Origin: Eubacteriales bacterium | GTDB taxonomy: Bacteria; Bacillota; Clostridia; Oscillospirales; CAG-272 | Assembly: GCA_045643285.1 (NCBI GenBank) | Contig: JAZUKN010000014.1 | Span: forward strand, 7,772 to 71,771 | DNA length: 64,000 nt | Direction: 5' to 3' | Shown: positions 807 to 45,483 of the stretch, one piece after another | Layout of the letters: each line of letters begins with the position of its first letter | Position numbering within the stretch: position 1 is the first letter of the stretch | Made by a program: the position numbers and the translations under genes | The notes under the pieces: model-generated | What the model was told of the DNA's origin: nothing | The model's database searches: none | Seen by the model: the letters and a program-made list of their open reading frames with translations, nothing else

Positions 807-810
807 CTAA

Positions 811-3693: not shown

Positions 3694-4782
3694 ATGAAAA
3701 AACTCGGATTCGGTCTTATGCGTCTGCCGATGAACGGCGAAGAGGTCGACATCGAAACATCGAAAAAGATGGTCGACTCGTTTATCGAAAACGGCTTCAA
3801 CTACTTTGACTCCGCGCGCGTGTATCTCGGCTCAAAGTGCGAGAGCATCACAAAGGAAATACTGACCTCTCGCTATCCGAGAGAGAGCTATTTTCTCACG
3901 GGTAAGCTCTCGCCGTCGTGCTTTGAAAAAGAAGAGGACATCGTTCCGCTTTTCGAGAGCCAGCTCTCTGATCTCGGCGTCGATTATCTCGACTATTATC
4001 TGATGCACTCACAGCACAAAGGCAATTATCAGAAATTCAAGGACTGCCGCGCGTATGAGATCGCATCGGAGCTGAAAAAAACCGGAAAGATCCGTCACGT
4101 CGGCATCTCGTTCCACGACACTGCGGACTTTCTCGAAACTATCCTCTCCGAACAGCCGATGATCGAAGCCGTACAGCTCCAGTTCAACTACATGGACTAC
4201 GATTCGCCGACGGTGCAGGCGCGTCAGTGCTACGAGGTCGCACGCAGATTCGGCAAGGACGTGCTTATCATGGAACCTGTAAAGGGAGGTTCGCTCGCAA
4301 ACATCCCCGACGAAGCAAAAGCGGTCTTCGCGTCCGTCGGAAGTGCGTCGCCTGCCTCCTATGCGATACGCTACGCGGCAGGATTTGACGGAGTCATCTG
4401 CGTTCTTTCCGGTATGAGCACACCCGAACAGATGGCGGACAACATGAGCTTCATGTCCGATTTCAAGCCGCTTTCCGACGAAGAAAAAGACGCCGTCGAA
4501 AAGGTGAAGAGCATCATAAATTCAAAGTATCTCATCCCCTGCACGGCGTGCAAATACTGCGTCGACGGTTGCCCGATGAACATTCCGATACCGCGCCTGT
4601 TCTCGTGTCTGAACGGCAAAAAGGCTTACGGCGACGTTTACGCGAAGGCGAAGTACGACCACGTCACCGAGGAAAAGGGCAAAGCGTCCGACTGCATAAA
4701 GTGCGGTGCGTGCGAGGATTCCTGTCCGCAGAAGCTCGATATACGCGACCTGCTCGAAGAAGTCGCACGGGAATTTGATTAA
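3694..4782 (+). CDS. Aldo/keto reductase with C-terminal 2x[4Fe-4S] ferredoxin-type motifs
   Basis: 362 aa. AKR fold (FDSARVYLGSKCE..., YLDYYLMH, GISFH) followed by CTACKYCVDGCP and CIKCGACEDSCP. Confidence 0.75.
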   Translation: MKKLGFGLMRLPMNGEEVDIETSKKMVDSFIENGFNYFDSARVYLGSKCESITKEILTSRYPRESYFLTGKLSPSCFEKEEDIVPLFESQLSDLGVDYLDYYLMHSQHKGNYQKFKDCRAYEIASELKKTGKIRHVGISFHDTADFLETILSEQPMIEAVQLQFNYMDYDSPTVQARQCYEVARRFGKDVLIMEPVKGGSLANIPDEAKAVFASVGSASPASYAIRYAAGFDGVICVLSGMSTPEQMADNMSFMSDFKPLSDEEKDAVEKVKSIINSKYLIPCTACKYCVDGCPMNIPIPRLFSCLNGKKAYGDVYAKAKYDHVTEEKGKASDCIKCGACEDSCPQKLDIRDLLEEVAREFD

Positions 4783-5201: not shown

Positions 5202-7430
5202 CTATTCTACAACTGTAGTAATTATCTCTTCTCCGTTCACGCAGACCGTGACTTTTTCGCCTGCTTTTCCGTGGAGTGCGAACGAGACGACCTTGCCGTT
5301 TTTCCATTCGCAGTCGACCGAATAGCCGCCGCGCGCTCTTAGACCTCTGAACGAGCCGGACCGCCATTCTTCGTCTGTCGGCAGTGCAGGCAGAAGCGTT
5401 ACTTTTCCTCCGTGGCTCTGGATAAGCATTTCCGCTATCGCCGCAGTGCCTCCGAAGTTACCGTCTATCTGGAACGGCGGATGATTGTCGAACATATTCG
5501 GGAGCGTGCAGTTTCCGATAAGCCCCGTGAGGTTCGAGAGTGCCGAGTCGCCGTCGCCGAGCCGTGCGAAGAAGAGCGTTATCCACGCCTTTGACCAGCC
5601 TGTGTGACCGCCTCCGTGCGATAGCCGCCGCTCAAGCGTCACTCTTGCCGCGTCGCAAAGCTCCGGTTTTGACGGATTTATCTCGTCACCGGGGAAGAGT
5701 GCGAATAACTGAGAAATGTGCCTGTGTCCGGGTTCGGGTTCGTCGAAGTCCTCGCTCCATTCCATGATCTGCCCGTGCTTGCCGATTCCGAGCGGCGCGA
5801 GAAGTGATATTTTCTCTCTTAATTCGTCCGCAAAGTCTGCATCTTTTCCGAGGATATCGCACGTTTCTGCCGTCATCGAGAACAGCGCGCGGATTATCTC
5901 GTTGTCGATAGTCGGTGCGGCACAGATTGAGTGGCGTTCGCCGTTTTCGGTGAAGAAAGAGTTTTCGGGGGAGTTCGACGGACACGTTGCAAGACAGCCC
6001 GTGCGCGGGTCGACGACGAGAAAATCAAGGAAGAATTCGCACGCGCCGCGCAGAATGTCGTAATTGTCGCGCAGTACCGCCGTGTCGTTCGAGAACAGAT
6101 AGCGTTCCCATATATGCAGACAGCACCACGCACCGGCGCACATGAACGAGCCCCACGATGCGCCCTCACCCGGGGAAGTGAAGCCCCACGGATTTGTGAT
6201 AGTGTGCGCTACCCAGCCGCTTGCATTGTACTGTACCTTGGCCGTCTGTCTGCCGTGCTCCGAGATGAAACGGATGTGATCGAAGAACGGCTTTATCAGT
6301 TCCGGCAGACCGCACGTTTCGGCGAGCCAATAGTTCATCTGAATGTTGATGTTGATGTGATAGTCCGCGCCCCACGGTGTGTTGTATCCCTCAGCCCACA
6401 CGCCTTGCAAATTTGCGGGCAGTCGGCAGTTATACGACGAGCAGATCAGCAAATACCGCCCGAACGCGAAGTAGAGGAGCGCGAGTCCGGTGTCCTTTTC
6501 GCCGGATTTCACGCGGAGGATACGCTCGTTCGTCGGTATGGGAGAGTCGGTTTCGATCCCGTCGAGCGAGATGACCGCGCGTCCGAGCAGGGAAGACAGT
6601 ATTTCCGCGGATTTACTATACCTTTCACCGAACGTGCCGCTGATCCCGTCGACTGCCCTCTTTGCGAGAGCGAACGGGACTTCGGGATCGGATTCGGGGA
6701 GCGGCAGTCCACCCGGCTTTGGCGGAACGTAGCCCGTGCGGATGTCGACCGTTACGGTGAGCCGTGTAACGCCCTCGAAAGTGATACCGCTCTGCGCCAC
6801 TGTTGCCGTTCCGTCGTGCGTGAATCTTCCGTATACTGCATAAGCCTCACCGCGTTCGTAGGCATATTTCAGCGAGAACGAATCGTGGGCATATTCGGCT
6901 GTTGCGTATTGATTTTCGTAGCGGAAACAGACCGAAAACGGCTTGTCAGACGTGTATTCCGCCGAGAAAACGCCGTCGTCAAGGGACGTGAAAAACCGTC
7001 TGACGTGATGTGCGCCGTTTTCGGTGAACGATGTTTCGGACAGTCCGCCGTCGAGCGTGAGAGTGCGGGAATAATCGCTTATCAAACCTTCATCGAGCGT
7101 CGGAAAGTCGAAGAACATCTCTCCTGCGATCTGGAACGCACCGTAGTCGGGACCGTGCGAGCCGTCCGAGCCGCAGACCATGTATTTCATCGTCAGTTCT
7201 TCGCCTGTTTTGTAGTCGCCCGAGAAGATTGCGTTCCGTATCTCGTCGAGATGCGCAGGACATTCGGCGTTGTCCTGGAGTTTATCATACCTGCCACTCC
7301 ATAGGGACTCTTCGCAGAGCGTTATCCTGTCGCGCGAGATGCCGCCCCACACAGTTGCGCCGATCCGTCCGTTTCCGAGCGGAAGCGATTCCGTCCACAC
7401 GGAAGCCGGAGACGTGTAATGTAATTTCAT
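5202..7430 (-). CDS. Glycoside hydrolase family 95 (alpha-L-fucosidase-like)
   Basis: ORF 5202..7493. Start moved to ATG 7430 ([30 protein letters not shown], the canonical GH95 N-terminus) because the longer form would overlap acpP. Confidence 0.8.
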
Positions 7431-14940: not shown

Positions 14941-15314
14941 GCAGTACGAAAAAGCTGATGGAATCCGGGCAGATGTATCTTGAAACGATCCTTGTGCTGA
15001 CCGAAAAGAACGGTCAGGTGCGCTCGATAGACGTGTGCGACGAAATGGGCTACTCGAAGCCGTCGGTCAGCCGCGCAGTGTCGAAATTGAAGACGGACGG
15101 ATATATAACAGTCGACGGCGGCGGATATATCACGCTGACGGATAGCGGACGGACGGTAGCCGAGAAAATATACGAGCGGCATACGGTGCTGACGGAGTTT
15201 ATCGCACGGCTTGGAGTCTCACGCGAAACGGCGGCAGAGGACGCGTGCAAGATCGAACACGACATAAGCGACGAGACTTTTGAAGCGATGAAAAAACACG
15301 TCAAATTGAAGTAA
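14937..15314 (+). CDS. DtxR/MntR family metal-dependent transcriptional regulator
   Basis: 125 aa. MYLETILVL...IDVCDEMGYSKPSVSRAVSKLKTDGYI...ERHTVLTEFI. Its ATG overlaps the TetR stop (ATGA at 14937-14940). Confidence 0.8.
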   Translation: MSSTKKLMESGQMYLETILVLTEKNGQVRSIDVCDEMGYSKPSVSRAVSKLKTDGYITVDGGGYITLTDSGRTVAEKIYERHTVLTEFIARLGVSRETAAEDACKIEHDISDETFEAMKKHVKLK

Positions 15315-15640
15315 GAAGTAATAGTGAATAGGGAAGAAGTAGACAAAGTGAGCGAAAATATTGCATTTTCTTTGTAACAAAGGGGTTCAACCGAGATGCG
15401 GAGCATCTCGACGACTTCGTTTACGAAGTCGGTAGGCGTGAATTGGACGAAGTCCCTTCCCCCTAAGCGCGGTGATTCACAAGAGCGTCGCGGTACGCTC
15501 TTGTGCGCCGTCCGCGTAGGACATCCCACGAACCCAAACGTTAGGTTTGGATAAATTCTGCGGCAGGAGTAAACCCCTGCCCTACAGATGCGGAATGTTA
15601 TATCGTGCGAATCCGTGAGATTTGTGCAAGTTAAAGAAAA
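15306..15640. repeat. Mosaic hairpin repeat, copy 2 (tail overlaps the DtxR-like gene stop; head ends at 15587)
   Basis: Starts ttgaagtaagaagtaatagtgaatag..gaagtagacaaag. Continues ctttgtaacaaagggg, gagatgcggagcatctc, gacttcgtttacgaagtc, gtgattcacaagagcg..cgctcttgtgcgcc, aacccaaacgttaggtttgg, cggcaggagtaaacccctgccctacag. Confidence 0.85.
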
Positions 15641-15720
15641 GTGAAGTATGCGCTTCGCGCAAGTGAAGTTGCCAAAGGCAGTGAAGTTACGCTTCGCGTA
15701 GTGAAGTTTGCGCTTCGCGC
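15641..15720 (+). repeat. Mini-hairpin array A: 4 units of ~20 nt (constant GTGAAGT spacer plus variable triloop palindrome)
   Basis: gtgaagta-tgcgcttcgcgca / agtgaagt-tgccaaaggca / gtgaagtt-acgcttcgcgt / agtgaagttt-gcgcttcgcgc. Ends 25 nt before the activase gene start. Confidence 0.85.
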
Positions 15721-15747
15721 AAGTTTTGGAAAGGAGACACACCCGTG

Positions 15748-17076: not shown

Positions 17077-18415
<1,339 letters not shown>

Positions 18416-18496
18416 AGATGATCGCTGCTCTGTTTTCGTATAGGGAGACTGATATGGAAGAAAACGTTGTGGACGTTTTCAAAATTCGTTTTTTAC

Positions 18497-18800
18497 AACT
18501 ATGCACGAACTCCACCCCGTATGCTGTATGGCAGGGGCTTGTCTCCTGCCGCCGGATTTGCACTTACTTTATATAGGCAAAAGGTAGAAAACGACTTACG
18601 TCGTTTTCAAATTATTTTCTTTTTCCACTACGCGTGGGGCTGCATAACCGAGTTCACTCCGTGAACTCGACGAGATGCTCCGCATCTCGGTTGGACACCT
18701 CCGTTGCCGGGTCCTTATGAATCCAGGCAACTTAGGGGGAAGGTCGCTTCGCTCTATTCCCCCTAAGGACCCCTTTGTTGCTAAGTAAGATCAAATCGCT
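18497..18800. repeat. Mosaic hairpin repeat, copy 3a (head first on the + strand)
   Basis: ctatgcacgaactccacc; ctgtatggcaggggcttgtctcctgccgccggatttgcac; gaaaacgacttacgtcgttttc (18587-18608); gagttcactccgtgaactc; gagatgctccgcatctc; cttagggggaagg..ccccctaagg; cccctttgttgctaag. Confidence 0.85.
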
Positions 18801-18837
18801 TCTTCAACTTACCACATAAAATCGACTACGTCTTTCT

Positions 18838-19050
18838 TCATAATGAGCGTCAGCGCGCTATTATTAACGACTCAAATCCTCTTCAGCGTCGCACTCACTT
18901 TGTGACAAAGGGGAGTTTCCAAAGAGGGGAAATGTGCTTGCACCTTGCCCCTCTTTGGCGCGGTGATTCACAAGAGCGTCGCGGTACGCTCTTGTGCGCC
19001 CCACGCGCAGTGGCAATATAATAATATGAAAACACGAAGTGTTTTCTACT
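18838..19050. repeat. Mosaic hairpin repeat, copy 3b (inverted relative to 3a; tails face each other)
   Basis: cataatgagcgtcagcgcgctatta..gaggattt-type module; ctttgtgacaaagggg; ccaaagagggg..cccctctttgg; gtgattcacaagagcg..cgctcttgtgcgcc; ccacgcgcagtgg; gaaaacacgaagtgttttc (19028-19046). Confidence 0.85.
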
Positions 19051-19057
19051 TCTCTAC

Positions 19058-19098
19058 AAAAAAAGTAAAACGGAAACATTCCTATGCTTCCGTTTTAC
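19058..19098 (-). terminator. Intrinsic terminator of ybaK (stem begins at the stop codon)
   Basis: Minus strand reads gtaaaacggaa-gcataggaatg-ttccgttttac followed by ttttttt. Confidence 0.75.
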
Positions 19099-19565
19099 TT
19101 TGTCAGTCCTGTGTATTCCGCCTCAACGTACCTTGCAAGCTCGTCCGGCGCGACGCGAAGCTGAAGCCCTCGCTGACCTGCACTGACGTAAATTTTGTCC
19201 CACAGGGCTGCCGTCTCGTCGATGTACGTCGGGAATTTTTTCTTCATCCCGACGGGTGAACAGCCGCCGCGGATGTATCCCGTGAGCGGAAGAAGCTCCT
19301 TCACGTGGATCATCTCGACGCGCTTCACTCCTGCCGCGACCGCGCATTTCTTTAAGTCAAGCTCGTACGCTACGGGGATAACGAAAACTTCGTATCCGCC
19401 TTTGTCGTCACGGCAGACGAGTGTTTTGAACATACAGTCGGGATCAAGACCGAGCATTTCTGCCGCGTGGACGCCGGATAGATCGCTCTCGTCAACCTCG
19501 TATGTTACGGTACCGTACTCTATCCCTGCCGAATCAAGCAGGCGCATCGCGTTCGTTTTTGTCAT
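19095..19565 (-). CDS. ybaK: Cys-tRNA(Pro)/Cys-tRNA(Cys) deacylase YbaK
   Basis: 156 aa. MTKTNAMRLLDSAGIEY...FKTLV...GYIRGGCSPVGMKK is the YbaK/EbsC signature. Confidence 0.85.
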   Translation of the reverse strand: MTKTNAMRLLDSAGIEYGTVTYEVDESDLSGVHAAEMLGLDPDCMFKTLVCRDDKGGYEVFVIPVAYELDLKKCAVAAGVKRVEMIHVKELLPLTGYIRGGCSPVGMKKKFPTYIDETAALWDKIYVSAGQRGLQLRVAPDELARYVEAEYTGLTK

Positions 19566-24459: not shown

Positions 24460-24561
24460 AGTTCTCTCTTTTTTTATTGCAAAATTGTTATTTTAATAAT
24501 ACTCTTTATGGGATAAAGATGCCGCAAATCTTACGGCTGTGCGTGAAATCTCTTTTTTATA

Positions 24562-24897
24562 CTGTAGGGCGGGGGCTTGTCTCCCGCCGCCAGATTTGCA
24601 CACACTTCACATAGAAAAAGGTAGAAAATGTCGGGGACGTTTTAAATTATTTTCTTTTGTCCTGCGTATGAAATACGCGGCGGACGGGCGCACATTCAAC
24701 CAAACCTAACGTTTGGCGTCGTTGTGTCCTACGCGGACGGCGGACAAGAGCGTGATTCGACGCTCTTGTCAATCACCGAACCAAAGGGGGAAGGTCGCTT
24801 CGCTCTATTCCCCCTTTGGAAACCCCTTTGTTACAAAGTTTGTGCGACGTTATCGAGGATTTAACCCGTGGGGTAATAGCGCGCTGACGCTCATACG
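24562..24897. repeat. Mosaic hairpin repeat, copy 4 (most complete head-to-tail exemplar)
   Basis: ctgtagggcgggggcttgtctcccgccgccagatttgcaca; gaaaatgtcggggacgtttta; gtcctgcgtatgaaatacgcggcggac; caaacctaacgtttgg; gacaagagcgtgattcgacgctcttgtc; ccaaagggggaagg..ccccctttgg; cccctttgttacaaag; gtgcgacg..gaggattta..taatagcgcgctgacgctcat. Confidence 0.85.
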
Positions 24898-24970
24898 TTT
24901 TTGTATACAAGGTTATAGTGCAGTGAATAGGGGTTTTGTCTTAATTTGCCATTTTTCACTTGCATCTTTC

Positions 24971-25927
24971 TCAGAACGTTACGACTTCTTCTTCGGGTGC
25001 GGTTGCCGGGGCGAGAGACAGTACCTCAAGTGCCGCCAGCTTTCCGCCCGGTTCTTCGCCGTAGATCGACGCATCGACCGACACGACCTTCGCCTTGACG
25101 TAATACCACGCCTTATTCTTGAACGTCATATTGTTCTTGACGTAAATGCTGATGAACTGGATATCGTTCGCACAGCAGGTCATCGCAAAGCGTCCGATAA
25201 GGAATCCGTTTGCGGCGACTGCGCTGATCTGTGCCGCCTGCGCGCGCATCGTCACCGTTTTGCCTTCGTACTTGTCCACGTTATCCATTACGTCAAAGTA
25301 GAACACTCCGAAATCCGCGTCGCTGACGTCTATCTCGTCTTTTGTGAGGTCGAACGGGGAAGCGTCGAACTGAGCGTCCATTGTGCCGTCCTCGTATTCG
25401 TATACGACCTGCACGCGCATATTCACTGCCTTTACCAGACTGCGGTACGCCATTTTCTTCGAGTCGTCCGTAAAACGGTTGAAGATCACTATATCCGAAT
25501 TGCGGAACTGCTCAACGAGCATCGCGCGGAGGTTCTTTGAATAAGCATCGAACGTGGTCGAATCGACGGTCGTCATGATTTCGACGAGCTGCCACCCATC
25601 CGGATATACTATCTCAAGCGGCGCGTTTCCGTCCCACATTCCGTTGTATTCTATCGCCACGATGTCGGGCGCGTATTTCCGCTCAATGTCTTCGTACAGC
25701 GCGGAATTAAAGTCTTCTTCATCCTCGACGGACACGAGCGTGACGTTTTTTTCGCGGAGATTTTTTTCGTCGTATTCTTCGATACCCTCTTCGCAGACGA
25801 TCAGCACGATCTTTCTGCCGCCGCAGATCTGTCTGTTCTCGAAAAAGCGGTTTACCATTACGGTTTTGCCGGATTCAAGCAGTCCGTTGAAGAGGAAAAC
25901 GGGTACTTCTCTCGGTTGTTTTTTCAT
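24971..25927 (-). CDS. G3E/CobW-like P-loop domain lacking the CxCC motif, fused to a DUF1980 (TIGR03943)-like C-terminal domain
   Basis: 318 aa. Walker A FNGLLESGKT, DIVAIEYNG and FNRFTD resemble CobW G-motifs, with no GCxCC. The C-terminal half contains GRFAMTCCANDIQF, the CC-x-x-D hallmark I recall from DUF1980 proteins. Lies 21 nt downstream of the cobW-like gene. Confidence 0.55.
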   Translation of the reverse strand: MKKQPREVPVFLFNGLLESGKTVMVNRFFENRQICGGRKIVLIVCEEGIEEYDEKNLREKNVTLVSVEDEEDFNSALYEDIERKYAPDIVAIEYNGMWDGNAPLEIVYPDGWQLVEIMTTVDSTTFDAYSKNLRAMLVEQFRNSDIVIFNRFTDDSKKMAYRSLVKAVNMRVQVVYEYEDGTMDAQFDASPFDLTKDEIDVSDADFGVFYFDVMDNVDKYEGKTVTMRAQAAQISAVAANGFLIGRFAMTCCANDIQFISIYVKNNMTFKNKAWYYVKAKVVSVDASIYGEEPGGKLAALEVLSLAPATAPEEEVVTF

Positions 25928-25948: not shown

Positions 25949-27070
25949 TTACAGTCCGAACAGCTCGCAGAGAGCGTGCTCGTCGAGCTTTGTGCCGATG
26001 ACGCAGAGTCGTCCCGTGTAGTCTGCGGAGCCGTCGCGGATCTCGTATTCGCCGGGCGTGAGGTCGAACTGGAGCCACTTGCCGTCCGTTGTTTCGACGA
26101 TGCCCTTTGCGCGGATGATCACGCCGACGGGGTTTTCTTCCGCCGCGAGGACGGAGAGTGCCTTGTCGAGTGCATCGCGGTCGAACTTCTTCGGGGTTTC
26201 CTTGCCCCAGTTCGTGAAGATTTCGTCCGCGTCGTGACCGTGGTGGTGATGATGGTGGTGATGATGCTCGTGGTGGTGTTCGTCATCATCGTCGTCGTCA
26301 TGGTGGTGGCAGTGGCATTCGTGTTCGTCATCGTCGTCATCATCGTGGTGATGGTGGTGATGATGTTCATGCTCTTCGCCTTCTTCGTCGTGGTGGTGAC
26401 AGCAGCAATCGTCGTCATCATCGTCATCGTGATGAGCGGCGGCTATTGCGGCAAGAAGCTCGGCGGCGAGGGAGTCCTGCTTTTCCATGGCGGTACGCAT
26501 TACGTCGCCGGAGATCTCGTCCCACGGAGTCGTGATGATCGCCGCCTTCGGGTTGTGTTCCTTGATGAGTGCGACTACTGCTTCGAGCTTGTCGTCGGTG
26601 AGCTTTTGTGTGCGGCTCAAAATGATACAGCCGGCGTTTTCGATCTGGTCATTGAAGAATTCGCCGAAGTTCTTCATATACATTTTCGCTTTTGTCGCGT
26701 CGACGACTGCCGTAAAGCTCGACAGTACGGCTTTTCCGTCGGTGTCTGCGCCCTGGGCGGCGTGGATGACGTCGGAGAGCTTGCCGACTCCTGACGGCTC
26801 AATGATGATTCTGTCGGGAGAATATTTTGCGACGACTTCGGCGAGTGCTTCGCGGAAATCGCCTACAAGGGAACAGCAGATACAGCCGGAATTGATCTCG
26901 GACACTTCAATTCCGGCATCTTTCATGAATCCGCCGTCGATGCCTATTTCGCCGAATTCGTTCTCGACGAGGACGAGTTTTTCGCCTGAATAACTTTCGG
27001 CGATGAGTTTTTTGATGAGAGTTGTTTTTCCGGCTCCGAGGAATCCGGAAATGATGTCTATTTTTGTCAT
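25949..27070 (-). CDS. COG0523/CobW-family metallochaperone GTPase with a ~70-aa His/Asp/Cys-rich insert
   Basis: ORF 25949..27259. Start moved to ATG 27070 (GGAGG RBS; MTKIDIISGFLGAGKTTLI). GCICC metal motif. Insert AAHHDDDDDDDCCCHHHDEEGEEHEHHHHHHHDDDDDDEHECHCHHHDDDDDDEHHHEHHHHHHHHHGHD, followed by a CobW_C-like end. Confidence 0.85.
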   Translation of the reverse strand: MTKIDIISGFLGAGKTTLIKKLIAESYSGEKLVLVENEFGEIGIDGGFMKDAGIEVSEINSGCICCSLVGDFREALAEVVAKYSPDRIIIEPSGVGKLSDVIHAAQGADTDGKAVLSSFTAVVDATKAKMYMKNFGEFFNDQIENAGCIILSRTQKLTDDKLEAVVALIKEHNPKAAIITTPWDEISGDVMRTAMEKQDSLAAELLAAIAAAHHDDDDDDDCCCHHHDEEGEEHEHHHHHHHDDDDDDEHECHCHHHDDDDDDEHHHEHHHHHHHHHGHDADEIFTNWGKETPKKFDRDALDKALSVLAAEENPVGVIIRAKGIVETTDGKWLQFDLTPGEYEIRDGSADYTGRLCVIGTKLDEHALCELFGL

Positions 27071-27131
27071 GGTTACGCCTCCGTAAAACCGAAACGGTCT
27101 TTTCTTTTGATGAAAATATTTTAACTTATAC

Positions 27132-27160
27132 ATTCTATCACAAAATGTAAGGAAATGCAA
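27132..27160 (-). promoter_or_regulatory. Promoter TTGCAT-17-TAGAAT with extended -10 TG (COG0523 gene pair)
   Basis: Minus strand reads ttgcatttccttacattttgtgatagaat, between the STAS terminator and the cobW-like start. Confidence 0.55.
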
Positions 27161-27200
27161 GGATTTGGGAAAGAAAACGCCGTGGAGTTTTCCTTTTCCG

Positions 27201-27227
27201 CAAAATAAAAAGCGCAAACGCGCTTCT
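27201..27227 (-). terminator. Intrinsic terminator closing the NRPS/PP2C-kinase/STAS operon
   Basis: Minus strand, right after the STAS TAA: aagcgc-gttt-gcgctt followed by tttattttg. Short 6-bp GC-rich stem. Confidence 0.5.
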
Positions 27228-27530
27228 TTATTTTTCCGTGATAATGATTTTTTTGTCAAGTCCCGTCAGACGGAAGATACTTGCGATCTCCGTACCGGCG
27301 TTCACCACCGAAAACCATGCGCCGATCTCTTTCGCTTTTCTGTGGCACGCCACGACCTGTCTCAGTCCCGACGACGCTATGTACTCGACTTTGTCAAAAT
27401 CAAGCACTATCGACTTCGCTTCTTCGATCGCGTCGATCTCTTTTCCAAGCTCCGGCGACGATGCCGTATCGAGCCAGCCGTCAAGCGCGAGAGTGATCTT
27501 TCCGTCTTCGTTTGTCTTTGTGATCGTCAT
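27228..27530 (-). CDS. STAS-domain anti-sigma-factor antagonist (RsbV/SpoIIAA-like)
   Basis: 100 aa. LDFDKVEYIASSGLRQVV carries the conserved phosphorylatable Ser context. The ATG overlaps the stop of the upstream phosphatase/kinase gene (ATGA 27527-27530). Confidence 0.8.
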   Translation of the reverse strand: MTITKTNEDGKITLALDGWLDTASSPELGKEIDAIEEAKSIVLDFDKVEYIASSGLRQVVACHRKAKEIGAWFSVVNAGTEIASIFRLTGLDKKIIITEK

Positions 27531-29515
27531 TTTCTGTCACCTCCGAGATATTTTATCATTGTTAAAATGTTTTTGCCGTTCGTGTATTCGTAGTTGATCT
27601 CGTCGACCGCCGAGAACGCGATGAACCGCCCAAGACCGCCCATTTGAACGTCCGGATCGTAGTCCCCTGCTCCGACTCCTTCGCGCGGATCAAACTCTTT
27701 TCCGCCGTCCTCAAAGCGCATCAGTATCCTGTCGGACACCGCGAGACGGAAGCTGATCTTTTCTTTCTCCGCGTCTTTATCTTTGAACGCATACGACACG
27801 ATATTGACGAAGCATTCCTCCGCCGCGAGACACAGCTCAAGCTGTTTCTGTCTCGGAAGCGGAAGCGAAAGTATCGCATCCTTGATTTTATCAAACTCGC
27901 TCTGTTCCACGTCGAGTGACAGTTCCGTCGTGTCCTTTACGGTAAGCGAGAGCATCGTTATGTCGTCGTGCTGTTCACTGCCGTCCGCGAACTCATCGAG
28001 GGCATGGCTGACGTATCCGACAATATCTGGCGCGTGAGACGGGCGGAACGACGAAAGCAGCTCTTCGAGCCGTTTTTCGCCGAAGAAGTGCTTCTCGCTG
28101 TCGGTAGCCTCGGTCACTCCGTCGGTGTAGAGAAGCAGTGTTTCTCCCATTGAGAGCTGCTCGACTGCCGATGTGTATTCCTCTCCCTCAAATAAACCGA
28201 GGATCACTCCGTTTGCCTCAGAAAGAGTGCGGACGTTTTCACCCACGACATAGGGAAGATTGTGTCCGGCGTTCGAGTAGGTGAGCGTCTTCGTGCGGCT
28301 GTCGTAAATGCCGACGAACGCCGTAACGAACAGCATTTCCGTATTGTTTGCGGCAAGCGCGGAGTTCGTTTTTTCGAGTATCTCGTCCGGAGGAAGATTC
28401 ATTTTCGCATACTGATGAATGAGCGTCAGCGTCACCGCCATGAAGATCGACGCGGCGATACCCTTTCCCGACACATCGGCTATCACGGTCAGCACGCGGT
28501 TTTCGTCAAGCGGAACGTAGTCGTATAGGTCGCCTGCGACTTCGTTTGCCGGCTTCATCATCGCCGACAGCTCGTACCGCTCGTATATCGGCCTGCCCGT
28601 CGGCAAAAAACCCTTTTGGATGTTCGCGGCGACATCAAGCTCCGTTTCGCGTCTTTCGCTTTCACGGGTGAGCGCTTCGATATTCCGAAGATAGCTGCCG
28701 ATGTTGTCGCTCATAGTGCCGAACGCATCAGCTATCATTGCAAATTCATCACTTTCGGTTCCGGCAAGCGAGATTTTTTCGCTCTTTCCTCCGGCAGCGA
28801 AGCTCGTCATCGCCTTGCTGAGTTTCTTCGCAGGTACGGATACCTGTCCGCGGATGACGAAATACATACTGATGCCCACGGCGGCGATCACGGCGGCGAG
28901 TGCCAGACCGATGATCAGAAAATACCTGTTTATCTCTCTGTATATTTCGATATTGTCAACGTCCACGCCGACAGATACACGGTTACCGTAGGAATCCTCA
29001 ATGATCGTTTCGGTTATCAGCTCGTGACCGAAAAGCGACTTCGTGACGATATGCGAGAACTGCTTCTTGCCCATCCATAAATTAAGCTCTTCGGTCGTGT
29101 AATTGTTTTCCTTCACAAGACCGACAAAGTGATCGGGGTATTTTTCCTCCATTTCGGGATCTTTGTACGCCGCGCAAACATACTGAAATACGCCTCTATC
29201 CGGGTACGGCACCAGCACGAATGCGTAGTCGATATCGAACCACTCGCACATGAATTCACCGTAAGTCAGCGCGAGATCGTGGTATTCGGGCAAGATCGGC
29301 ATTCCTGCCGTCTCATATTCGCCCTTGATTATGTCGGAGTACATCGTGACAAGCTGTTCGGACGTTTTTTCGGTCTTTCGGCGGATTATGGTCGACACTC
29401 CGAAGTACGACGCGGCAAGAAGCACCGCAAGTGCAGAGAGCAGGATAAGCACAGCCCTCTGCGACACACGCGCGGCTATGGAATTATAGTGTTTTTTCTT
29501 ACTTCCGTCTTTCAT
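27527..29515 (-). CDS. Membrane sensor with HAMP, PP2C (SpoIIE/RsbU-type) phosphatase and RsbW/SpoIIAB-type HATPase kinase domains
   Basis: ORF 27527..29608. Start moved to ATG 29515 (MKDGSKKKHYNS...), which overlaps the NRPS stop. Two TM segments flank a ~190-aa outside domain, then a HAMP-like linker. PP2C core: AANIQKGFLP...AGDLYDY...VIADVSGKGIAASIFM...LLLYTDGVTEA. C-terminal HATPase: AAEECFVNIVSYAF, FEDGGKEFDP, GGLGRFIAFSAVDE. Confidence 0.8.
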   Translation of the reverse strand: MKDGSKKKHYNSIAARVSQRAVLILLSALAVLLAASYFGVSTIIRRKTEKTSEQLVTMYSDIIKGEYETAGMPILPEYHDLALTYGEFMCEWFDIDYAFVLVPYPDRGVFQYVCAAYKDPEMEEKYPDHFVGLVKENNYTTEELNLWMGKKQFSHIVTKSLFGHELITETIIEDSYGNRVSVGVDVDNIEIYREINRYFLIIGLALAAVIAAVGISMYFVIRGQVSVPAKKLSKAMTSFAAGGKSEKISLAGTESDEFAMIADAFGTMSDNIGSYLRNIEALTRESERRETELDVAANIQKGFLPTGRPIYERYELSAMMKPANEVAGDLYDYVPLDENRVLTVIADVSGKGIAASIFMAVTLTLIHQYAKMNLPPDEILEKTNSALAANNTEMLFVTAFVGIYDSRTKTLTYSNAGHNLPYVVGENVRTLSEANGVILGLFEGEEYTSAVEQLSMGETLLLYTDGVTEATDSEKHFFGEKRLEELLSSFRPSHAPDIVGYVSHALDEFADGSEQHDDITMLSLTVKDTTELSLDVEQSEFDKIKDAILSLPLPRQKQLELCLAAEECFVNIVSYAFKDKDAEKEKISFRLAVSDRILMRFEDGGKEFDPREGVGAGDYDPDVQMGGLGRFIAFSAVDEINYEYTNGKNILTMIKYLGGDRK

Positions 29516-32500
29516 TGTTCGTCTCCGAGTTCGTTTATATCGAAATAATCGAGCGTCATTATGCTGTTTATCGCGCGGTCGAGGTATGCGTCGTCGACGA
29601 GCGGCCACGAGAAACCTATCCTGTACAGCACGTTCGTCGTGAAGCGGTTGTCACAGTCGACGGCGTGCGCGTCCTTTATGTCGTATGCCGCAAGTCCGCC
29701 GAGCTTTGCGTTAAATCTGTCGTCGCCGAGCTTTTTACGGAATTCGTCGTAGTATACGTCGTCCTGTTCGGCGATTATCGTGATACCGTTGCGGTTGCAG
29801 GCATCGATGATCTTCATTTCGTCAAATCCGTAGCGGTTGTCGGCGTTGAACGCGGTGAAGCGGTCGTCCACTCCTGCGAGAAGCACGACGGCTCTTGCTG
29901 TGCAGTCGACGGGTGAGAAGCGCATCGGGTCCGTCATGTGGCTGATCGGGTACTTGCCCATTACGGAAAATCCACGGATGCCGGAGAGAAACATATTCGT
30001 CTCAAGGTTTGCCTGGAATTCGCCGTCCCTGTGCCGTCCCATGAGGTTGCCGACTCTTATTACCCGGCCTCTCATACCTCTTTCTATTGCTTCGAACATA
30101 CAAAGCTCCGCATTGTACTTTGAGATAGCGTATTTGTTGTCCATGTCGTCGATCACGAACAGCTCGTTTTCGTGCATTCTTATCTGCTTTTCGTAGCTTT
30201 CGACTGTGTGGATTCCGGGAACGGACACCGTCGAGATCTGCACGAGGCGCGCACCTCTCTTTTCGCAGATCGAAATGAGGTTCTTCACGCCGCCGACGTT
30301 GATCCGTTTAAGAATATCGCTGTCGGAGAAATGCTTTACGCACGCCGCGCAGTTGATAACCGTGTCAAACGGTACGTCGGCGAGTGTATCTCCGAGAGAA
30401 GAATCCGTTATATCGGCTTCGATGAGCGTTATCCTGTCTCTGAGCGCGTCTTCAAATGCGTCGGAGAAGTAGTAGATGAGCATTGTCTTCAGTCTGGCGA
30501 GCGGACTGTCGTATTCCCCTCTGCGGACAAGGCAGTAAATATGTCCTTTTTCGGATTTTATGAGTTCTTCGAGAACGTGTATGCCGAGGAATCCGACCGC
30601 ACCCGTGAGAAGCACGTTTCCGAGCGGCTCTCTCTTCACGTCCGCCGCATATTTTACGGTATTGTATTTCAGTGCGTCGCGCGTCTTTGAAGAGATATTG
30701 CCGTCGGCGGAATCGTCGTCCTGTTTTGCTTTTTTCGCCTTGCCGTCGCGCTCTTCGATGAATCCGGCGAGCATTTCGGGAGTCGGATTGTCGAAAATAT
30801 CGCCGTACTTCACGTCTATCCCGTCGGACATCAGCATCATCGTGACCTTTGACGCGGACAGCGACGTACCGCCGTTCTCGAAGAAGTTGTCGTCGGCGTA
30901 TACTTCGTCAAGCGAAAGGACGGACGAGAATATCTCGCAGAGTCTTTCTTCAAGCGATTTCTTCGCGGCGCGTCTGCCCCTCTTGTCGGCGGATTTCTTT
31001 TTGATGTTCGCAGTTTCCGGAAGTGCTTTTTTGTCGATTTTTCCGTTAGGAGTAAGCGGAATGGCATCAAGCTGCATTATGACAGCCGGCACCATATAGT
31101 ATGTGAGCCGTTCTTTCAGATGCTCCGTGAGCGCGTCGATGTCAGTCGGCTCGGAGGCAGTGAAGAACGCCGCGAGGTAGTCTTCTCCGCCGTTGTTGCG
31201 GACGACGACTTTAGCCTGCTTGACTGTGCCGAAAGAGCAAATCACCTTTTCGATCTCGTCAAGCTCTACTCTGAATCCGCGGAGCTTGACCTGGTTGTCG
31301 AGCCGTCCGGAGAATTCTATTTCCGCGTCTCGGTTCACTCTGACGAGGTCGCCGCTGTGGTACGCCCTCAGTCCGCGAAGCTCGGTAAACGCCGCGGCAG
31401 TCTTTTCGGGCAGCTTCACGTACCCTCGCCCGACTCCTTCTCCGCATATCATAAGCTCACCGGATGCGTACGGCGGAAGTATGTTGCCGTCGGTGTCGGT
31501 CACATAGAATCGGACGTTGCCGGTAGGTCTGCCGATAGTGATACCGTTTCCGGAGTGAAGCTCCTTCATTGAACAGCAAATCGAAGTTTCCGTCGGGCCG
31601 TAACCGTTTACTATCTGTAATTCGGATGAGGTCTTCTTCAGCGAATCGTAAAGCGACGGCGGGAACGCTTCCGCACCGGATACTATCGTTGTAAGTCCGC
31701 GTATCGCCTCTTCAAATTCCTTTACGCTTATCGCGTTGTTGAGGAACGACGGAGTGCAGGTCATAAAGCGGACGTCGTTGTCTTTCATCAACTTTGCGAG
31801 TGCTATCGGGTTGTGTATTTCGTCCTCCGTCGCCATGACGACAGTCTTTCCGCGGTACAGAGCGAGATAAATCTCATACAGCGACATATCGAACGAGATC
31901 GAGCTTACGGCGAGCGACGCACCGCCATCTTTTCCGTCGGTGAAGAATCGGAGGACGAGCTGATCGGTCTCGACGAAGTTCGAGAAGTTCCTGTGCTCGA
32001 TCATAACGCCCTTGGGAGTTCCCGTAGAGCCGGAGGTATAGATGCAGTAAGCGAGCGCGTCCGGCTGAACGTCGACATTCGGGTTCTCGCGGTTGTTGTT
32101 TTCGAGCAGTTCTTCAACGGTCAGCGTTCTGTACGGCTTTGTGTCGGCGAATAGATCGGGTTTTGCGGCTTTGATATTCTCCGTCGTGATGACGAATTTC
32201 GCCGACGCATTCGTGAGGCAGTAGTCTATTCTTTCGTCGGGATAGGACGGTAGCATCGGTAAGAACGCGCCGCCGGATTTTTGCAGACCTATCTCGCATA
32301 TCATGACTTCCTTTGTCCGCTCCAGCACAAGTCCGACTATATCGTCTTTGACGACGCCGAGAGAAACAAGCGAATTTGCGACGGCGTTCGCCTGACTGTT
32401 CAGTTCCCCGAACGTCAGTGATTCGCCTGCGGCGACAACGGCTGTTCTGTCGGGATGAAGAGCGGCTTGTTCTTTGATCACACGGTGTACTCTCTTGCCT

Positions 32501-35500
32501 GTAGTCTTCACGTCGGATGCGTTGAGAACGGAATACGTCTCTTCCGCGTCATGCGACATCATCGAAACCGACGAGAGCTTTTCTGCCGTCATAAAGTTCT
32601 CAGCAACCGCGTCGACCGACGAAATAAGCGACTCAACGAGCCTGCGGCAGAACATATCCCTGCGGTAATCCGCAACGATGACGGGCTTTCCGGCGCGGAT
32701 GTATACGTTCATCGAAATCGGCGACTTTGCGACGGACGGTGCGACGTCGATGACCTCCGCAGTCTTTCCGCAGAGTGAATCAAACGCGAACGTCTCGCCC
32801 TGATATACGAATATTATATCTGATCTTATTCCGTATGCGCCGGACACCTCGGCAAACGATAAGAGGTCGTTCGACATATTGCCGAGAAGCTCAGTCTGAG
32901 TATCGCGGATGAGCTTTTCGGGAGCGTCGCCGCCGTTTATTTTTGCGTAAACGGGGACGGTCTTTACGAGCATCGTGACCGAGCCTGCGAGCCGCGAGTC
33001 ACTGCGTCCGTTGTAGATCGTTGTGAAGACTGTGTCTTCCCTGTGGATGAACCGCGCAAGGACATAAGCGAAAACGGAGTTCCAGAACGAGTTTGCCGTC
33101 ACGCCGTGTTCGCGGCAGTATTTTTTGATCTTTTCGTTGTCGACGGAGCATACTTTCTTTATGCTTCCGGCTTCTTTTTCGACGGTTTCAGGGCATTTTC
33201 CGGGCAGGCATTCCGCGTCCGCGCCTCTGAAAATGCTGTCGTAGTATTCCTTGGCGCGTGCGAGCCGGTCTGTTTTTCTCGCCTGTTCTTCGTCGAGCGC
33301 GGCTTCAAATCCTGTGTATGTTTCTTTTTCGACTTCTTCGCCGACATATGCTTTCGTTATATCCGAGAGGATTATGCTCTCGCTCGTGCCGTCGGAGATG
33401 ATGTGATGAGCGTCGGTGAAGAAGTATTTTCCGCCGTCCGTTTCGTATATTGCGGCTCTGATAAGCGGTTCTCCGAGTAAGTTGAACGGCTTTACAAGCG
33501 CGGAGCTGTCGGGCAGGCAGGCGCACTTTATGACGGGCACTTCGATTTCTGCGCCGTCGTTTCTCTTCGCTCTGACGTTGCCCTCGTTGTCGGTGAAAAG
33601 CACGGTCTTGACGTACGGATGAGCGTCAAGCGCAGTCTTCACGGCAGAGGCGAGCTTTTCGGAATCGACTGACTCGTCGAGCTTTATGAGAAGCGGCATA
33701 TTATAGAGCACGCTGTCGGAATTCGAGAGACATTCAATGAAAATGCCTTTCTGCGTCTCGGTTATCGGGTAGTCGGGGAAAATTTCGTATTCCTCTGCTT
33801 TTTCGGCGGACGAGACGAACTTTTCAAGCAGTCTGACCGTCGGATTTTCTTTTATGTCCGCGATCTTTATAACGCACGGGAACGCTTTCGAGAGCATCAC
33901 GTTGAGCTTCACCGCGCCGATTGACGTAAGTCCTGCGTCGTAAATGTCGCTCTCTATGCCGAACGCCTTGTGTCCGATAACTTCGGCGATTATATCGTAA
34001 ATCTTCTGCTGTGATCCGTTTTCGGGAGCTGTCATATCGGAAGACCGTCTTTCCGGCACGGGAAGAGCGCGGCGGTTGACTTTCTGATTCTGATTCAGCG
34101 GAATCTTATCTATCCTCATCGTGACAGCCGGCACCATGTACGGCGGTTTTTCGGCTCTGATGAAGTCTCCGAGCGCGCGAACGTCGATCTCACCGTCGGA
34201 AACGACGTAAGCCGCGATGAATTTTCCGCCTGCCGGATCGTCGAATGCCGCGACAGTTGCGTCCTTTACGCCGGGAAAACGTCTGACGACCTCTTCGACC
34301 TCCGTAAGCTCCACTCTGAATCCGCGGACTTTGACCTGTGCGTCGCGTCTGCCGACGAATTGGAGATTTCCGTCGCCCATATATCGCACGATGTCGCCGG
34401 TGCGGTATACTCTTTCGTACCCTTCGCAGTCGTCAAACGGATTTGTACCGTATGCTTCTGCGGTCTTTTCAGGTCTGTTGAGATAACCGCGCGTGACGTG
34501 AGGACCTGCTATCCACAGTTCTCCCACTGCGCCGACGGGCAGAAGTGCGCCGCCCTTTCCGACGACGTACGCTTTGAGGTTGTCGACGGCTTTGCCTATC
34601 GGCACGTCTCTGTATCGCCCGTCAAGCGTGAATATCGACGTGATGACTGACCCCTCGGACGGACCGTATGCGTTGTGGAAAGCGAATCCCTCCGGCACGT
34701 CAAGCGGTATCAGCTTTTCTCCTGCCACGGTGAGGTGACGGAGAGTGCTCAGTCCGCCCATTTCGGCAAACTGCCTGCCGACCTGCATCGTCATGACGGT
34801 GTGAGTTATGCCGTTTTTGTTGAAATATTCGGCGAGGGCAGGGAAGTCGAGCCTTATCTCGTCGGAGATGATGTGCAGTTCCGCGCCGGACGTGACTGCC
34901 GGATACATATCGTAAACGTTTGCGTCAAAACCGTAGCTTGCGTAAGCCGCGACGCGCGAATCCGTGCCGATGCCGTAGAATTTCTTTTCCCATTCCGTCG
35001 TGACTACGGTATTTCCATGCTCGAACATAACGCCTTTCGGAACGCCGGTGGAGCCGGATGTGTATATCATCACAAACAGATCGTGCAGTCCGGGTGTCGG
35101 AAGCTGAATGTCCCGGAGCGTAACGTCCGACTCTTCGAGCGAATCAAGCGACGAGAGCGGTATCCTCTGCCCGGTGTACTCTTCTGTTATTATTCCGTCG
35201 AGCGCGTCCGCGTAAATGACAGCCGCCGCACGGGAATCTCCGATCATAAGATTCAGCCTCTCCGGCGGATAAGACGGATCGAGCGGCAAATATGCGCCTC
35301 CTGCCTTGAGTACGGCAAGAGAGCAGATGAGCATATACTCCGATCTCGGGATAAGCACGCCGACGACCTTTTTTCGTCCGATGCCGTTTTTCACGAGATA
35401 TTTTGCTATCGTGTCCGTTATTTCATCGATATAACGGTAGGTGTATCTGTTTTCTTCGTAGACAAGGCAAATTTTGTCGGGCGTTTTCGCCGCCTGCTCG

Positions 35501-38546: not shown

Positions 38547-38570
38547 CAAGGCGAGAGGAATTTCGCCTAA

Positions 38571-38680
38571 GTGATTTATGTGCAAATCGTTCGACGGGAG
38601 ACCGATGGTTTCCCCTGCGGTGAGAAATGATATTATGTGGATATCCGTGAAAAAATATTAAAAACGTCCCCGACGTTTTC
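38571..38680. repeat. Mosaic hairpin repeat, copy 5 (partial: head-type hairpin plus AAAACGTC hairpin)
   Basis: gtgcaaatcgttcgacgggagaccgatggtttcccctgcggtgag and aaaacgtccccgacgtttt (38661-38679), between the NRPS and alaS promoters. Confidence 0.6.
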
Positions 38681-38692
38681 TTCACCAAATAT

Positions 38693-38721
38693 TTGACAAA
38701 TCCGCACGCACGTGCTATAAT
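38693..38721 (+). promoter_or_regulatory. Perfect consensus promoter TTGACA-17-TATAAT (alaS)
   Basis: ttgacaaatccgcacgcacgtgctataat. Leaves a leader of only about 40 nt. Confidence 0.7.
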
Positions 38722-38769
38722 ATCATGTTGTATTATAGCAAAATCTGCTTTATTAAAGGAGCTTTTATT

Positions 38770-41454: not shown

Positions 41455-41483
41455 TTGACAAACGTCAACGCTTATGCTATAAT
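41455..41483 (+). promoter_or_regulatory. Perfect consensus promoter TTGACA-17-TATAAT (zinc-ribbon membrane protein)
   Basis: ttgacaaacgtcaacgcttatgctataat. Confidence 0.7.
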
Positions 41484-41519
41484 ATCCGTAACACAATCAA
41501 AAACCTACGGAGGTATTTT

Positions 41520-45311: not shown

Positions 45312-45340
45312 ATTATATCACATAATTGCAGGATTCGCAA
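45312..45340 (-). promoter_or_regulatory. Promoter TTGCGA-17-TATAAT with extended -10 TG (xylA)
   Basis: Minus strand reads ttgcgaatcctgcaattatgtgatataat. Confidence 0.6.
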
Positions 45341-45437
45341 GAGAATTTGCGGATTTCCGATAACCTCGCGGCTTCGCACGAAATATCATTTTTCGCCCGT
45401 CGAACAAATATGCACTTTTTTTATTTAGGCGAAAATA

Positions 45438-45459
45438 AAAAACGTCTTTCGACGTTTTT
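45438..45459. terminator. Terminator-like hairpin of the AAAACGTC/GACGTTTT class downstream of the ABC-F gene
   Basis: aaaaacgtc-tttc-gacgttttt flanked by A- and T-runs. Same motif class as the GAAAAC hairpin module of the mosaic repeats. Confidence 0.6.
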
Positions 45460-45483
45460 ATTATTTCATTATTCATTACTCTT

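Follow-up and report, generated by a model that had tools for sequence, protein, structure and literature searches.

The intergenic DNA of the stretch shown above (64,000 nt of contig JAZUKN010000014.1 from a Eubacteriales bacterium; hereafter the window, to which all coordinates refer) carries copies or fragments of one modular hairpin repeat in 10 regions; the element under study occupies positions 24562-24897. We consider these copies to be, probably, a family of repetitive extragenic palindromic (REP) sequences assembled into bacterial interspersed mosaic elements (BIMEs) and housed in uncultured Oscillospirales-like Clostridia; its hairpins would be constrained at the level of DNA, and it would be spread by a REP-associated tyrosine transposase (RAYT). 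An arm of the element comprises a GTAG-tagged REP hairpin (the head); up to ~10 further short near-perfect palindromes, each of them present, absent or swapped as a unit; optional arrays of GC-TTC-GC hairpins (the Gut-1 module); and a purine-rich heptamer tail. The strand reading CTGTAGGG first is called the forward strand of the element.

Nine of the regions had been listed in the initial annotation as carrying one mosaic repeat, and self-BLAST, repeat finding and MAFFT alignment bear this out; the tenth is 45330-45484. Self-BLAST delimited repeat blocks at 491-776, 15306-15724, 18524-19049, 24562-24900, 50592-50673, 52896-53387 and 54940-55559, a separate repeat-finding run on the window returned the same families (D2-D19), and the alignment of ten copies gave a consensus of ~330 columns, in which the modules follow the order proposed earlier. 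Two regions are weaker members: 38571-38680 aligns to the head region alone, and in 63162-63430 the family is represented solely by its tandem-hairpin (Gut-1) module and by a GAAAA hairpin; TTGCCTGCGGCAA, present at 52938, is found again at 63236. The repeats are 150-700 bases in size, are built from interchangeable hairpins and lie, in all copies, between open reading frames (ORFs); copy positions and alignment thus support the earlier description of the family as intergenic, mosaic and BIME-like. Summed coordinates put its share of the intergenic DNA in the window (8.0 kb) at ~3.7 kb, nearly half, with eight heads in 64 kb.

What the copies conserve is base pairing and not primary sequence, as had been proposed. 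We aligned by hand the arms of eight modules, using all distinct copies from the window and from related contigs; at 60 stem positions 364 of the 397 cells were Watson-Crick pairs, the remaining ones being 11 G.T, 10 A.C and 12 other combinations, and at 32 of the 60 positions at least two Watson-Crick pair types occurred, so that the stems stay paired via two-sided changes; these counts come from arms aligned with the structure in mind and include some inner stems that were swapped wholesale, not mutated point by point. Since MAFFT alignment of whole modules placed gaps in one arm only, pairs were counted on arms-only sequences and by hand. In the CACAAG module 98.7% of cells were paired and 7 of 11 pairs had changed on two sides, none on one side; this level was reached in 0 of 500 shuffles, and slid controls were 37-62% paired. 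The CCAAAG module (92.0% paired; 5 of 11 pairs changed on two sides, 0 on one) also exceeded all 500 shuffles, and for the GAAAAC module (98.1% paired; two pairs two-sided, three one-sided) 1 of 500 shuffles was as high.

The paired substitutions described in the initial annotation were verified: GGCAGGGG/CTCCTGCC at 18530 versus GGCGGGGG/CTCCCGCC at 24568 in the head; CCAAAG/CTTTGG versus CTTAG/CTAAG versus CCAAAGAGGGG/CCCCTCTTTGG; inner stems AC/GT, GAC/GTC, GTC/GAC and GT/AC in the GAAAAC hairpin; and the heads at 54943 and 53345, each of which encloses an additional GCGTATGTATACGC hairpin. In addition, 4 of 6 positions of the GTCC..GGAC hairpin (module M3) covary among three variants in the hand alignment, while the CCAAAC hairpin varies in its loop (CTAAC, CTTAC, TATAC, CGCAC). 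Every copy folds far better than its shuffles, both strands about equally; for copy C the folding energies were -122.9 (forward) and -113.8 kcal/mol (reverse) versus -89.5 +/- 4.2 kcal/mol for shuffles. Perfect triloop hairpins with a stem of at least 5 bp number 52 in the 8.0 kb of intergenic DNA versus 52 in ~56 kb of coding DNA, and 21 of the 52 intergenic ones are C-TTC/TCC-G or C-GAA/GGA-G, that is, d(C-GNA-G) mini-hairpins or their complements.

REPs are defined by an unpaired GT[AG]G situated 0-2 nt 5' of a hairpin with a G/C-rich stem of ~7-9 bp and a loop of 2-5 nt (PMC3733652, PMC6006769), and REP sub-families differ in complementary stem residues (PMC3733652, PMC2817692, PMC6006769). 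In the head of the present family C-Y-GTAG immediately precedes a G/C-rich stem of 8 bp with a loop of 3-5 nt, and GCC follows the return arm; the head resembles published REPs (PMC2817692), and its stem forms sub-families in the window (GGGAGGGG/CCCCTCCC, GGCAGGGG/CTCCTGCC and GGCGGGGG/CTCCCGCC; module M1). GTAG is intact in six of the eight window heads (copies A, C, D, E, F and H; letters as in Table 1), is degenerate in B (GTAT) and J (GCAG), and is also seen in the related contigs L001, L035, L036 and L047. A strict rule (PMC6006769) demands that the basal stem be fully paired over 7-20 bp, that its first four bases include no fewer than three G/C and that the loop measure 2-5 nt; the heads at 494 (copy A) and 50595 (copy E), each with 8 bp and a 3-nt loop, pass it, where 0.27 would be expected in shuffles. 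The initial annotation had likened the repeats to REP/BIME elements in concept and not in sequence, and had recognised no known family. The likeness in concept stands; as to sequence, the C-Y-GTAG tag with its 8-bp stem is the REP signature, and the tandem-hairpin module is Gut-1 of Rfam.

The head type is not confined to this lineage. A metagenome search with the pattern GTAGGGSRGGGG-N2-6-CYCCYSCCGC, in which two stem pairs are left free, recovered this 26-nt type of head from at least 120 contigs; among the matches listed the GC content ranged over 0.40-0.76, and each free stem pair was Watson-Crick in 131 of 132 distinct instances. In contig L143 (60% GC) a head REP (GTAGGGGAGGGGCTTGCCCCTCCC) lies 30 nt upstream of the start of a RAYT-like ORF (1225-1750, minus strand) and a second, inverted copy lies inside the ORF, an arrangement described for RAYT subclass 2.4. 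This ORF matched NCBIfam NF047646, 'REP-associated tyrosine transposase', with E = 5.5e-16 (58.8 bits), and its top PDB match was 4ER8 TnpArep. The human-gut metagenome contig L089 carries the same REP and flanks as L143 together with a truncated copy of the ORF. In contig L068 a REP head was located inside another RAYT-like ORF (E = 1.5e-10, 41.2 bits). RAYTs of group 1 are known from Clostridia (PMC5581495). Because of the recurrence of the head in these contigs, its covariation and the RAYT-like neighbours in L143 and L068, the head belongs to a cosmopolitan, RAYT-associated class of REPs; membership in this class suggests, in turn, mobilisation by a RAYT.

One module of the family is known to Rfam. 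Region 63162-63430 matched Gut-1 (RF01706) at 63346-63418 on the minus strand with 53.4 bits, versus a gathering score of 50 (gathering filters), and at 63343-63418, minus strand, with 58.4 bits in E-value mode; sub-threshold matches were seen at 63163-63238 (plus strand, 48.8 bits) and 15639-15712 (42.3 bits, E = 6e-05). The Rfam match is limited to the tandem-hairpin module; region 24562-24897 had no Rfam match, and none was found in the related loci. The question raised at the outset, whether the repeat is an already described family, is thus answered in part, by Gut-1 for the tandem hairpins. Gut-1 was reported as a probable non-coding RNA with covariation, seen in human-gut metagenomes only (Weinberg et al. 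2010, PMC2864571). With its flanks included, the Gut-1 seed displays inverted double arrays like those seen here ('GUGAUAU plus small hairpin', ending UUGCCUGCGGCA), and the unit is shared as well, consisting of a 7-8-nt spacer (GUGAAAU-like) and a short hairpin with a CUUCG loop. The difference is one of context: Gut-1 was described as a stand-alone RNA, whereas in the window its arrays are a module of a repeat and are tied to REP-headed elements, adjoining the copy F head and within the copy H tail.

Strain variants differ by whole hairpins. The comparison of strains proposed in the initial annotation showed such gains and losses in the Gut-1 array, with four hairpins here versus one in variant L002, and in a 43-nt indel comprising two hairpins. 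We also saw that two contigs of assembly ERZ1767638 (L001:2330-2700, L035:1900-2660) are identical to the window and then switch, inside the repeat, to a different copy and different neighbour genes; these switches may be real recombination or chimeras, both contigs being from the same assembly with ~3x coverage.

The tail has stop codons in all three frames (block TTGAAGTAAGAAGTAATAGTGAA) and overlaps the ends of genes: the block includes the stop codons of a DtxR-like gene (TAA, 15312-15314) and of a glycoside hydrolase GH20 gene (TGA, 52897-52899), and related heptamer runs include those of an ABC-F gene (TGA, 45484-45486, minus strand) and, in the tail of copy A, of a hisS-like gene (811-813, minus strand). 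That four unrelated genes end in a common tail block indicates insertion and not local origin. The purine-rich tail (15310-15345, 52900-52930) reads as degenerate heptamers, AGTAAGA AGTAATA GTGAAGA AGTAGAC, similar to the spacers of the Gut-1 arrays, as though an array had lost its hairpins.

In a sister species (AlaRS 92% identical) the family was found in three intergenic regions of contig L047, each laid out as a forward arm, a ~250-nt asymmetric centre and a reverse arm. The three centres (120-290, 3990-4170, 7200-7390) share a conserved sequence, GGCTGTCAGCATGAC...CTGCGGCAGCC...GTAGCGCC-TTAA-GGCGCGG, and are oriented alike relative to genes; the pairs of the window are without such a centre. 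In a species with glycoside hydrolase GH1 84% identical, family modules lie upstream of GH1 and its contigs end there; three independent GH1 assemblies (L036:1-180, L037:1-194, L038:1-174) break inside the repeat, ~180 nt upstream. No family member was found in 22 kb of a relative with AlaRS 82% identical (L048), nor in the loci around a 69%-identical GH1 homologue (L039-L046). The GC-rich contig L067 has the head and two further hairpins in common with some copies; modules thus have distributions of their own.

As for the level at which the hairpins are constrained, the mismatches in the stems are balanced between G.T and A.C, thus favouring neither strand. This balance, the C-GNA-G loops and the turnover of whole hairpins favour constraint on DNA over constraint on a strand-specific RNA. 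The mini-hairpin d(GCGAAGC) melts at 76 C as DNA, and its RNA forms are far weaker (PMC13037366). We conclude that the primary constraint is probably on DNA hairpins. The mechanism we propose is as follows. Constraint would act on hairpins formed in single-stranded or cruciform DNA; an HUH/Y1 enzyme of RAYT type, encoded elsewhere in the genome, would recognise GTAG plus hairpin and would spread or rearrange the head; the other palindromes would be gained, lost and corrected via replication slippage and template switching between hairpin arms. Copies would persist only where they are harmless, that is, between genes and just after stop codons, which the tail can supply; effects on transcripts, such as that of the terminator-like GAAAAC hairpin, would be secondary.

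One could speculate further. Tentatively, and with doubts prevailing, one could suppose that a REP-RAYT system became established in gut Firmicutes (Oscillospirales) and grew into 400-700-nt elements of exchangeable hairpin cassettes, which the host co-opted as polar gene 'punctuation', each supplying stops in three frames, a hairpin that resembles a terminator in both directions and an orientation fixed relative to transcription; Gut-1 would then be a module and not a free-standing RNA gene. In a bolder version, the non-REP hairpins with C-GNA-G loops may be substrates of a second enzyme acting on single-stranded DNA.

Several observations weigh against a RAYT-spread family constrained as DNA. 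The shuffle statistics overstate independence, because the copies are related by descent. Under the strict REP rule just two of the eight heads qualify; the heads at 24564, 54942 and 15585 do so with one G.T pair allowed, a relaxed rule that is unspecific, with 5.3 chance hits expected. The RAYT-like ORFs of L143 and L068 score under the NCBIfam curated cut-off of 80 and come from unrelated organisms, and Pfam and phmmer searches of the window and of related loci found neither a RAYT nor any other transposase. GTAG is restricted to the head, the other ~10 modules having no known enzyme, and no complete doublet of inverted heads of the type called REPIN was seen among the copies; the pairs arranged tail to tail (B/G, D/I and those of L047) span 550-700 nt, and one arm is headless in every complete case. 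Finally, where a single copy is flanked by co-directional genes (A, C, F, H and the tenth copy, at 45330), it is antisense to them in five of five cases, despite flips of gene direction, with the tail at the upstream stop codon and the head near the next gene. A mechanism linked to replication and single-stranded DNA does not predict this bias, which hints at an effect on RNA or transcription.

Such uniform orientation to transcription would be natural if the repeats functioned as RNA, their hairpins being transcribed in 3'-untranslated regions (3'-UTRs) or between cistrons to block exonucleases or terminate transcription, with the Gut-1 arrays as small or protein-sponge RNAs and with selection on RNA folding. 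The GAAAAC hairpin does resemble a terminator in both directions (its sisters at 18587 and 19028 were flagged on both strands in a terminator scan); it is the one module that fits the intrinsic-terminator pattern (G/C-rich hairpin plus U-tract), on both strands, the other modules having no T-tract. Gut-1 is curated as a likely RNA with covariation (PMC2864571), and for REPs of other bacteria transcription and a stabilising role on mRNA have been proposed (PMC3733652). However, G.T is no more frequent than A.C in the stems, and one-sided changes from G-C to G-U are almost absent from what are near-pure Watson-Crick stems, unlike in typical structured RNAs; both strands fold about equally; and the hairpins end in triloops (C-UUC-G or C-GAA-G) and not in C(UUCG)G tetraloops, the GNA type being stable in DNA and not in RNA. 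Separate ordinary terminators stand beside the elements (54856-54877, 19062-19101, 18406-18431). Copies E and J lie between divergent genes, J abutting the alaS promoter; not all copies are intact, half-hairpins of the CACAAG module being present in D, H and I, and the Gut-1 array ranges from one to four units between strains. We regard an RNA function as unlikely; of the two possibilities voiced in the initial annotation, RNA elements (3'-UTR, terminator or stabiliser) are therefore not favoured, and DNA hairpins bound by a protein are the better half.

Template switching at quasi-palindromes is an established mutational mechanism, and palindromes could in principle maintain themselves by homologous recombination, slippage and template-switch correction, with no dedicated enzyme, no selection and GTAG present by chance. 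Gains and losses at hairpin borders, the varying copy number of the array, inner stems swapped as cassettes, the change of gene neighbourhood inside the repeat in L001 and L035 (if these are not chimeras of their one low-coverage assembly) and the absence of a transposase from the window all agree with this. Chance inheritance of GTAG does not account, however, for a head that recurs in very different organisms with near-perfect covariation, an invariant GTAG and RAYT-like neighbours, and the same tail block at the ends of four different genes speaks for insertion; we find an origin of this kind quite improbable. The large imperfect inverted repeats formed by B/G, D/I and the three L047 loci, and the confinement of the family to a few close species, could also recall miniature inverted-repeat transposable elements (MITEs) whose parent was an ordinary insertion sequence of the DDE type, with its inverted ends represented by the tail-to-tail pairs. 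Alignments of copies and flanks revealed no terminal inverted repeats, target-site duplications or related insertion sequence, there being no empty site for a strict test of duplication; module content changes from arm to arm, and many copies are single arms; neither the window nor the related loci contained a matching transposase, and a phage contig collection had no match; and a GTAG hairpin end is typical of Y1-type and not of DDE systems. A MITE origin is, to our judgement, very hard to credit.

Several other candidates were tried and rejected: C(UUCG)G tetraloops (the loops are C-UUC-G triloops); a CsrA-type sponge with GGA loops (GGA is a minority loop, and the stems that carry it are long and perfect); a promoter reading outward from the head (TATAAA-like boxes are present in C and H, but A and F do not conserve them); iterons, or an array akin to CRISPR, in the case of the Gut-1 module (its context includes neither replication nor cas genes); attC sites of an integron (housekeeping neighbours, no integrase); and an assembly artefact (copies recur in independent ENA assemblies). 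The pattern TTTGGAAN{1,3}CCCCTTTGYYACARAG had 0 matches in metagenome contigs; its sole genome-contig match, L034, lies in a coding region of an unrelated AT-rich metagenome-assembled genome (MAG) and was judged a chance match. The tail pattern had 0 matches in viral contigs, and the 30 viral-contig matches to a looser GAAAAC pattern were judged to be chance, as this pattern is short and degenerate. A 170-aa ORF running across copy D, searched as a protein, had no matches.

Compared with known systems, the family shares with REP/REPIN sequences and their RAYTs (PMC3733652, PMC2817692, PMC6006769, PMC3116915) the unpaired GTAG at the foot of a short G/C-rich hairpin, sub-families with complementary stem changes, an extragenic, dense, lineage-specific and often inverted distribution and, for the head type in other metagenome contigs, adjacency to RAYT-like genes. 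It differs in that one REP heads up to ~10 unrelated hairpins, 150-420 nt per arm, that no short REP doublet is seen and that the host belongs to Clostridia, while the surveys consulted list Proteobacteria, Cyanobacteria, Chloroflexi and PVC but no Firmicutes (PMC3733652). Like the BIMEs of E. coli and Stenotrophomonas, it is an intergenic mosaic that combines REPs with conserved motifs, their order mostly fixed and the presence of modules varying between copies. In contrast, classic BIMEs alternate opposite REPs with short non-palindromic linkers; regular alternation of REPs was not seen in the window copies, which have one REP per arm and whose 'linkers' are hairpins with exchangeable stems. 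Composite repeats of Pseudomonas (degenerate GTAG-1 units, PMC3733652) likewise fuse a GTAG REP to another stem-loop in many copies; they carry a single additional stem-loop and flank a RAYT gene as its inverted ends, whereas here many stem-loops are chained with no gene between. Many family loops are exactly GCTTCGC or GCGAAGC, as in the d(GCGAAGC) mini-hairpin, and the commonest ones are C-GAA-G, C-GGA-G or complements, matching d(C-GNA-G) (PMC13037366, PMC3201870); the mini-hairpin, however, is a biophysical motif and not a genetic element, and its role here is putative.

Modularity of a comparable sort exists within the Firmicutes. The pneumococcal BOX element (boxA-boxB(n)-boxC) is a modular intergenic repeat with variable internal units and strong predicted structure; it has no known sequence relation to the present family, contains three module types and lacks a GTAG-tagged hairpin.

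Novelty lies in the lineage of the host, in a hairpin chain of such length and cassette-like modularity, and in a tail with stops in all three frames; a REP-headed, BIME-like kind of repeat and, as Gut-1, the tandem-hairpin module are already known. If confirmed genome-wide, the family would extend REP/BIME-type repeats, so far mainly Proteobacterial, to abundant uncultured gut Clostridia, with an architecture (one REP, swappable hairpins, three-frame stop tail) more elaborate than that of classic BIMEs. The orphan Rfam entry Gut-1 would be reinterpreted as a module of a genomic repeat, which would change the reading of Gut-1 matches in gut metagenomes. Short-read assemblies break, or may mis-join, at the repeats, which makes them a practical marker for MAG fragmentation and strain typing. 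Furthermore, balanced G.T and A.C mismatches set against a transcription-linked orientation provide a test case for separating DNA- from RNA-level constraint on repeated hairpins.

The copies and the modules of copy C are collected in Table 1. The head is absent from copies G and I and from the copy at 45330, while a second head-like hairpin (53436-53464) lies just beyond copy H, in tandem with its head. The only difference between copy J and the copy at 45330 is that the latter has lost the GTAG-like tag along with the 5' arm and loop of the head hairpin (45395-45400 versus 38596-38625), a precise loss of a REP.

Table 1. Copies of the hairpin repeat in the window and modules of copy C
Feature	Coordinates	Strand	Description
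Copy A	455-815	+	Head, two extra hairpins (569-610), GAAAAC, CACAAG and CCAAAG modules (alignment)
Copy B	18440-18800	+	Forward arm of tail-to-tail inverted pair B/G (alignment)
Copy C	24530-24905	+	Element under study (alignment)
Copy D	54905-55335	+	Forward arm of tail-to-tail inverted pair D/I; head with inserted GCGTATGTATACGC hairpin
Copy E	50555-50720	+	Partial: head and GAAAAC hairpin; between divergent genes
Copy F	15300-15645	-	Head at 15561-15590; tail TTGAAGTAAGAAGTAATAGTGAA
Copy G	18800-19065	-	Reverse arm of B/G pair; without head
Copy H	52895-53435	-	Head 53345-53387 with inserted hairpin; Gut-1-like array 52930-53011
Copy I	55335-55630	-	Reverse arm of D/I pair; without head hairpin
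Copy J	38560-38700	-	Partial: GAAAAC hairpin and head with degenerate GCAG tag
Tenth copy	45330-45486	+	Head hairpin deleted; GAAAAC-type hairpin 45438-45460 retained
Array of four tandem hairpins (Gut-1 module)	15639-15724	+	AGTGAAGT spacers; adjoins head of copy F
Region K	63162-63430	.	Two inverted Gut-1 arrays around two GAA-loop hairpins (63297-63321, 63330-63348)
Copy C, pre-head conserved motif GGCTGTGCGTGAAAT...	24535-24561	+	Counterpart of CACGGCTACGCACGAAA in other copies; alignment columns 45-90
Copy C, head, GTAG-tagged REP hairpin	24562-24591	+	CT-GTAG-GGCGGGGG-CTTGT-CTCCCGCC-GCC
Copy C, post-head conserved linker AGATTTGCAC	24592-24601	+	GGATTTGCAC in other copies; repeat family D6
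Copy C, GAAAAC hairpin AAAGGTA-GAAAATGTC-GGG-GACGTTTTA	24617-24646	+	A-tract and T-tract on flanks
Copy C, GTCCTG[GCGTAT-GAA-ATACGC]GGCGGAC hairpin	24659-24685	+	Constant frame, exchangeable inner stem
Copy C, CCAAAC-CTAAC-GTTTGG hairpin	24700-24716	+	Stem constant
Copy C, CACAAG module	24726-24770	+	GTCCTACGCGGACGGCGGAC, then GACAAGAGCGT-GATTCG-ACGCTCTTGTC hairpin; 7 variants compared
Copy C, CCAAAG module	24781-24819	+	CCAAAGGGGGAAGG...TTCCCCCTTTGG hairpin with inner GC-TTC-GC mini-hairpin; 8 variants compared
Copy C, CCCCTTTGTTACAAAG hairpin and tail (...GGATTTAACCCGTGGGGTAATAGCGCGCTGACGCTCATACG)	24823-24900	+	Repeat family D7, alignment

The genes of the window encode AlaRS, HisRS-like, PlsX, DegV, FakA and SpoIIE-domain proteins, ABC transporters and glycoside hydrolases, an ordinary chromosomal content of a spore-former-like Clostridia bacterium; no tRNA gene was found in the window. 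The nearest named relatives by AlaRS are MAGs labelled Ruminococcaceae, Clostridiales or Clostridia, with ~80-82% identity.

Some minor features of the window were also recorded. Tandem palindromes GTCAT-AAC-ATGAC, GTCAT-ACA-ATGAC and GTCAT-GTT-ATGAC, 14 nt apart, at 62086-62122 follow a homoserine dehydrogenase gene and precede a small ORF starting at 62173; they look like a triple operator or a small repeat. A CobW-family GTPase gene (25949-27259, minus strand) has a long His/Asp-rich insert with 12-nt periodic (GTGATGATG)n-like repeats at 26234-26430, which cause spurious Rfam mir-598 matches, and adjoins a second CobW/DUF1980 gene (24971-25927). Positions 29512-38481 (minus strand) are taken up by one ORF of 2989 aa, with copy J in its upstream region. 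Near-identical consensus promoters, TTGACAAA-N-TGCTATAATATC, at 38693-38724, 41455-41486 and 61716-61747 form repeat family D13 and lie upstream of alaS and two other genes.

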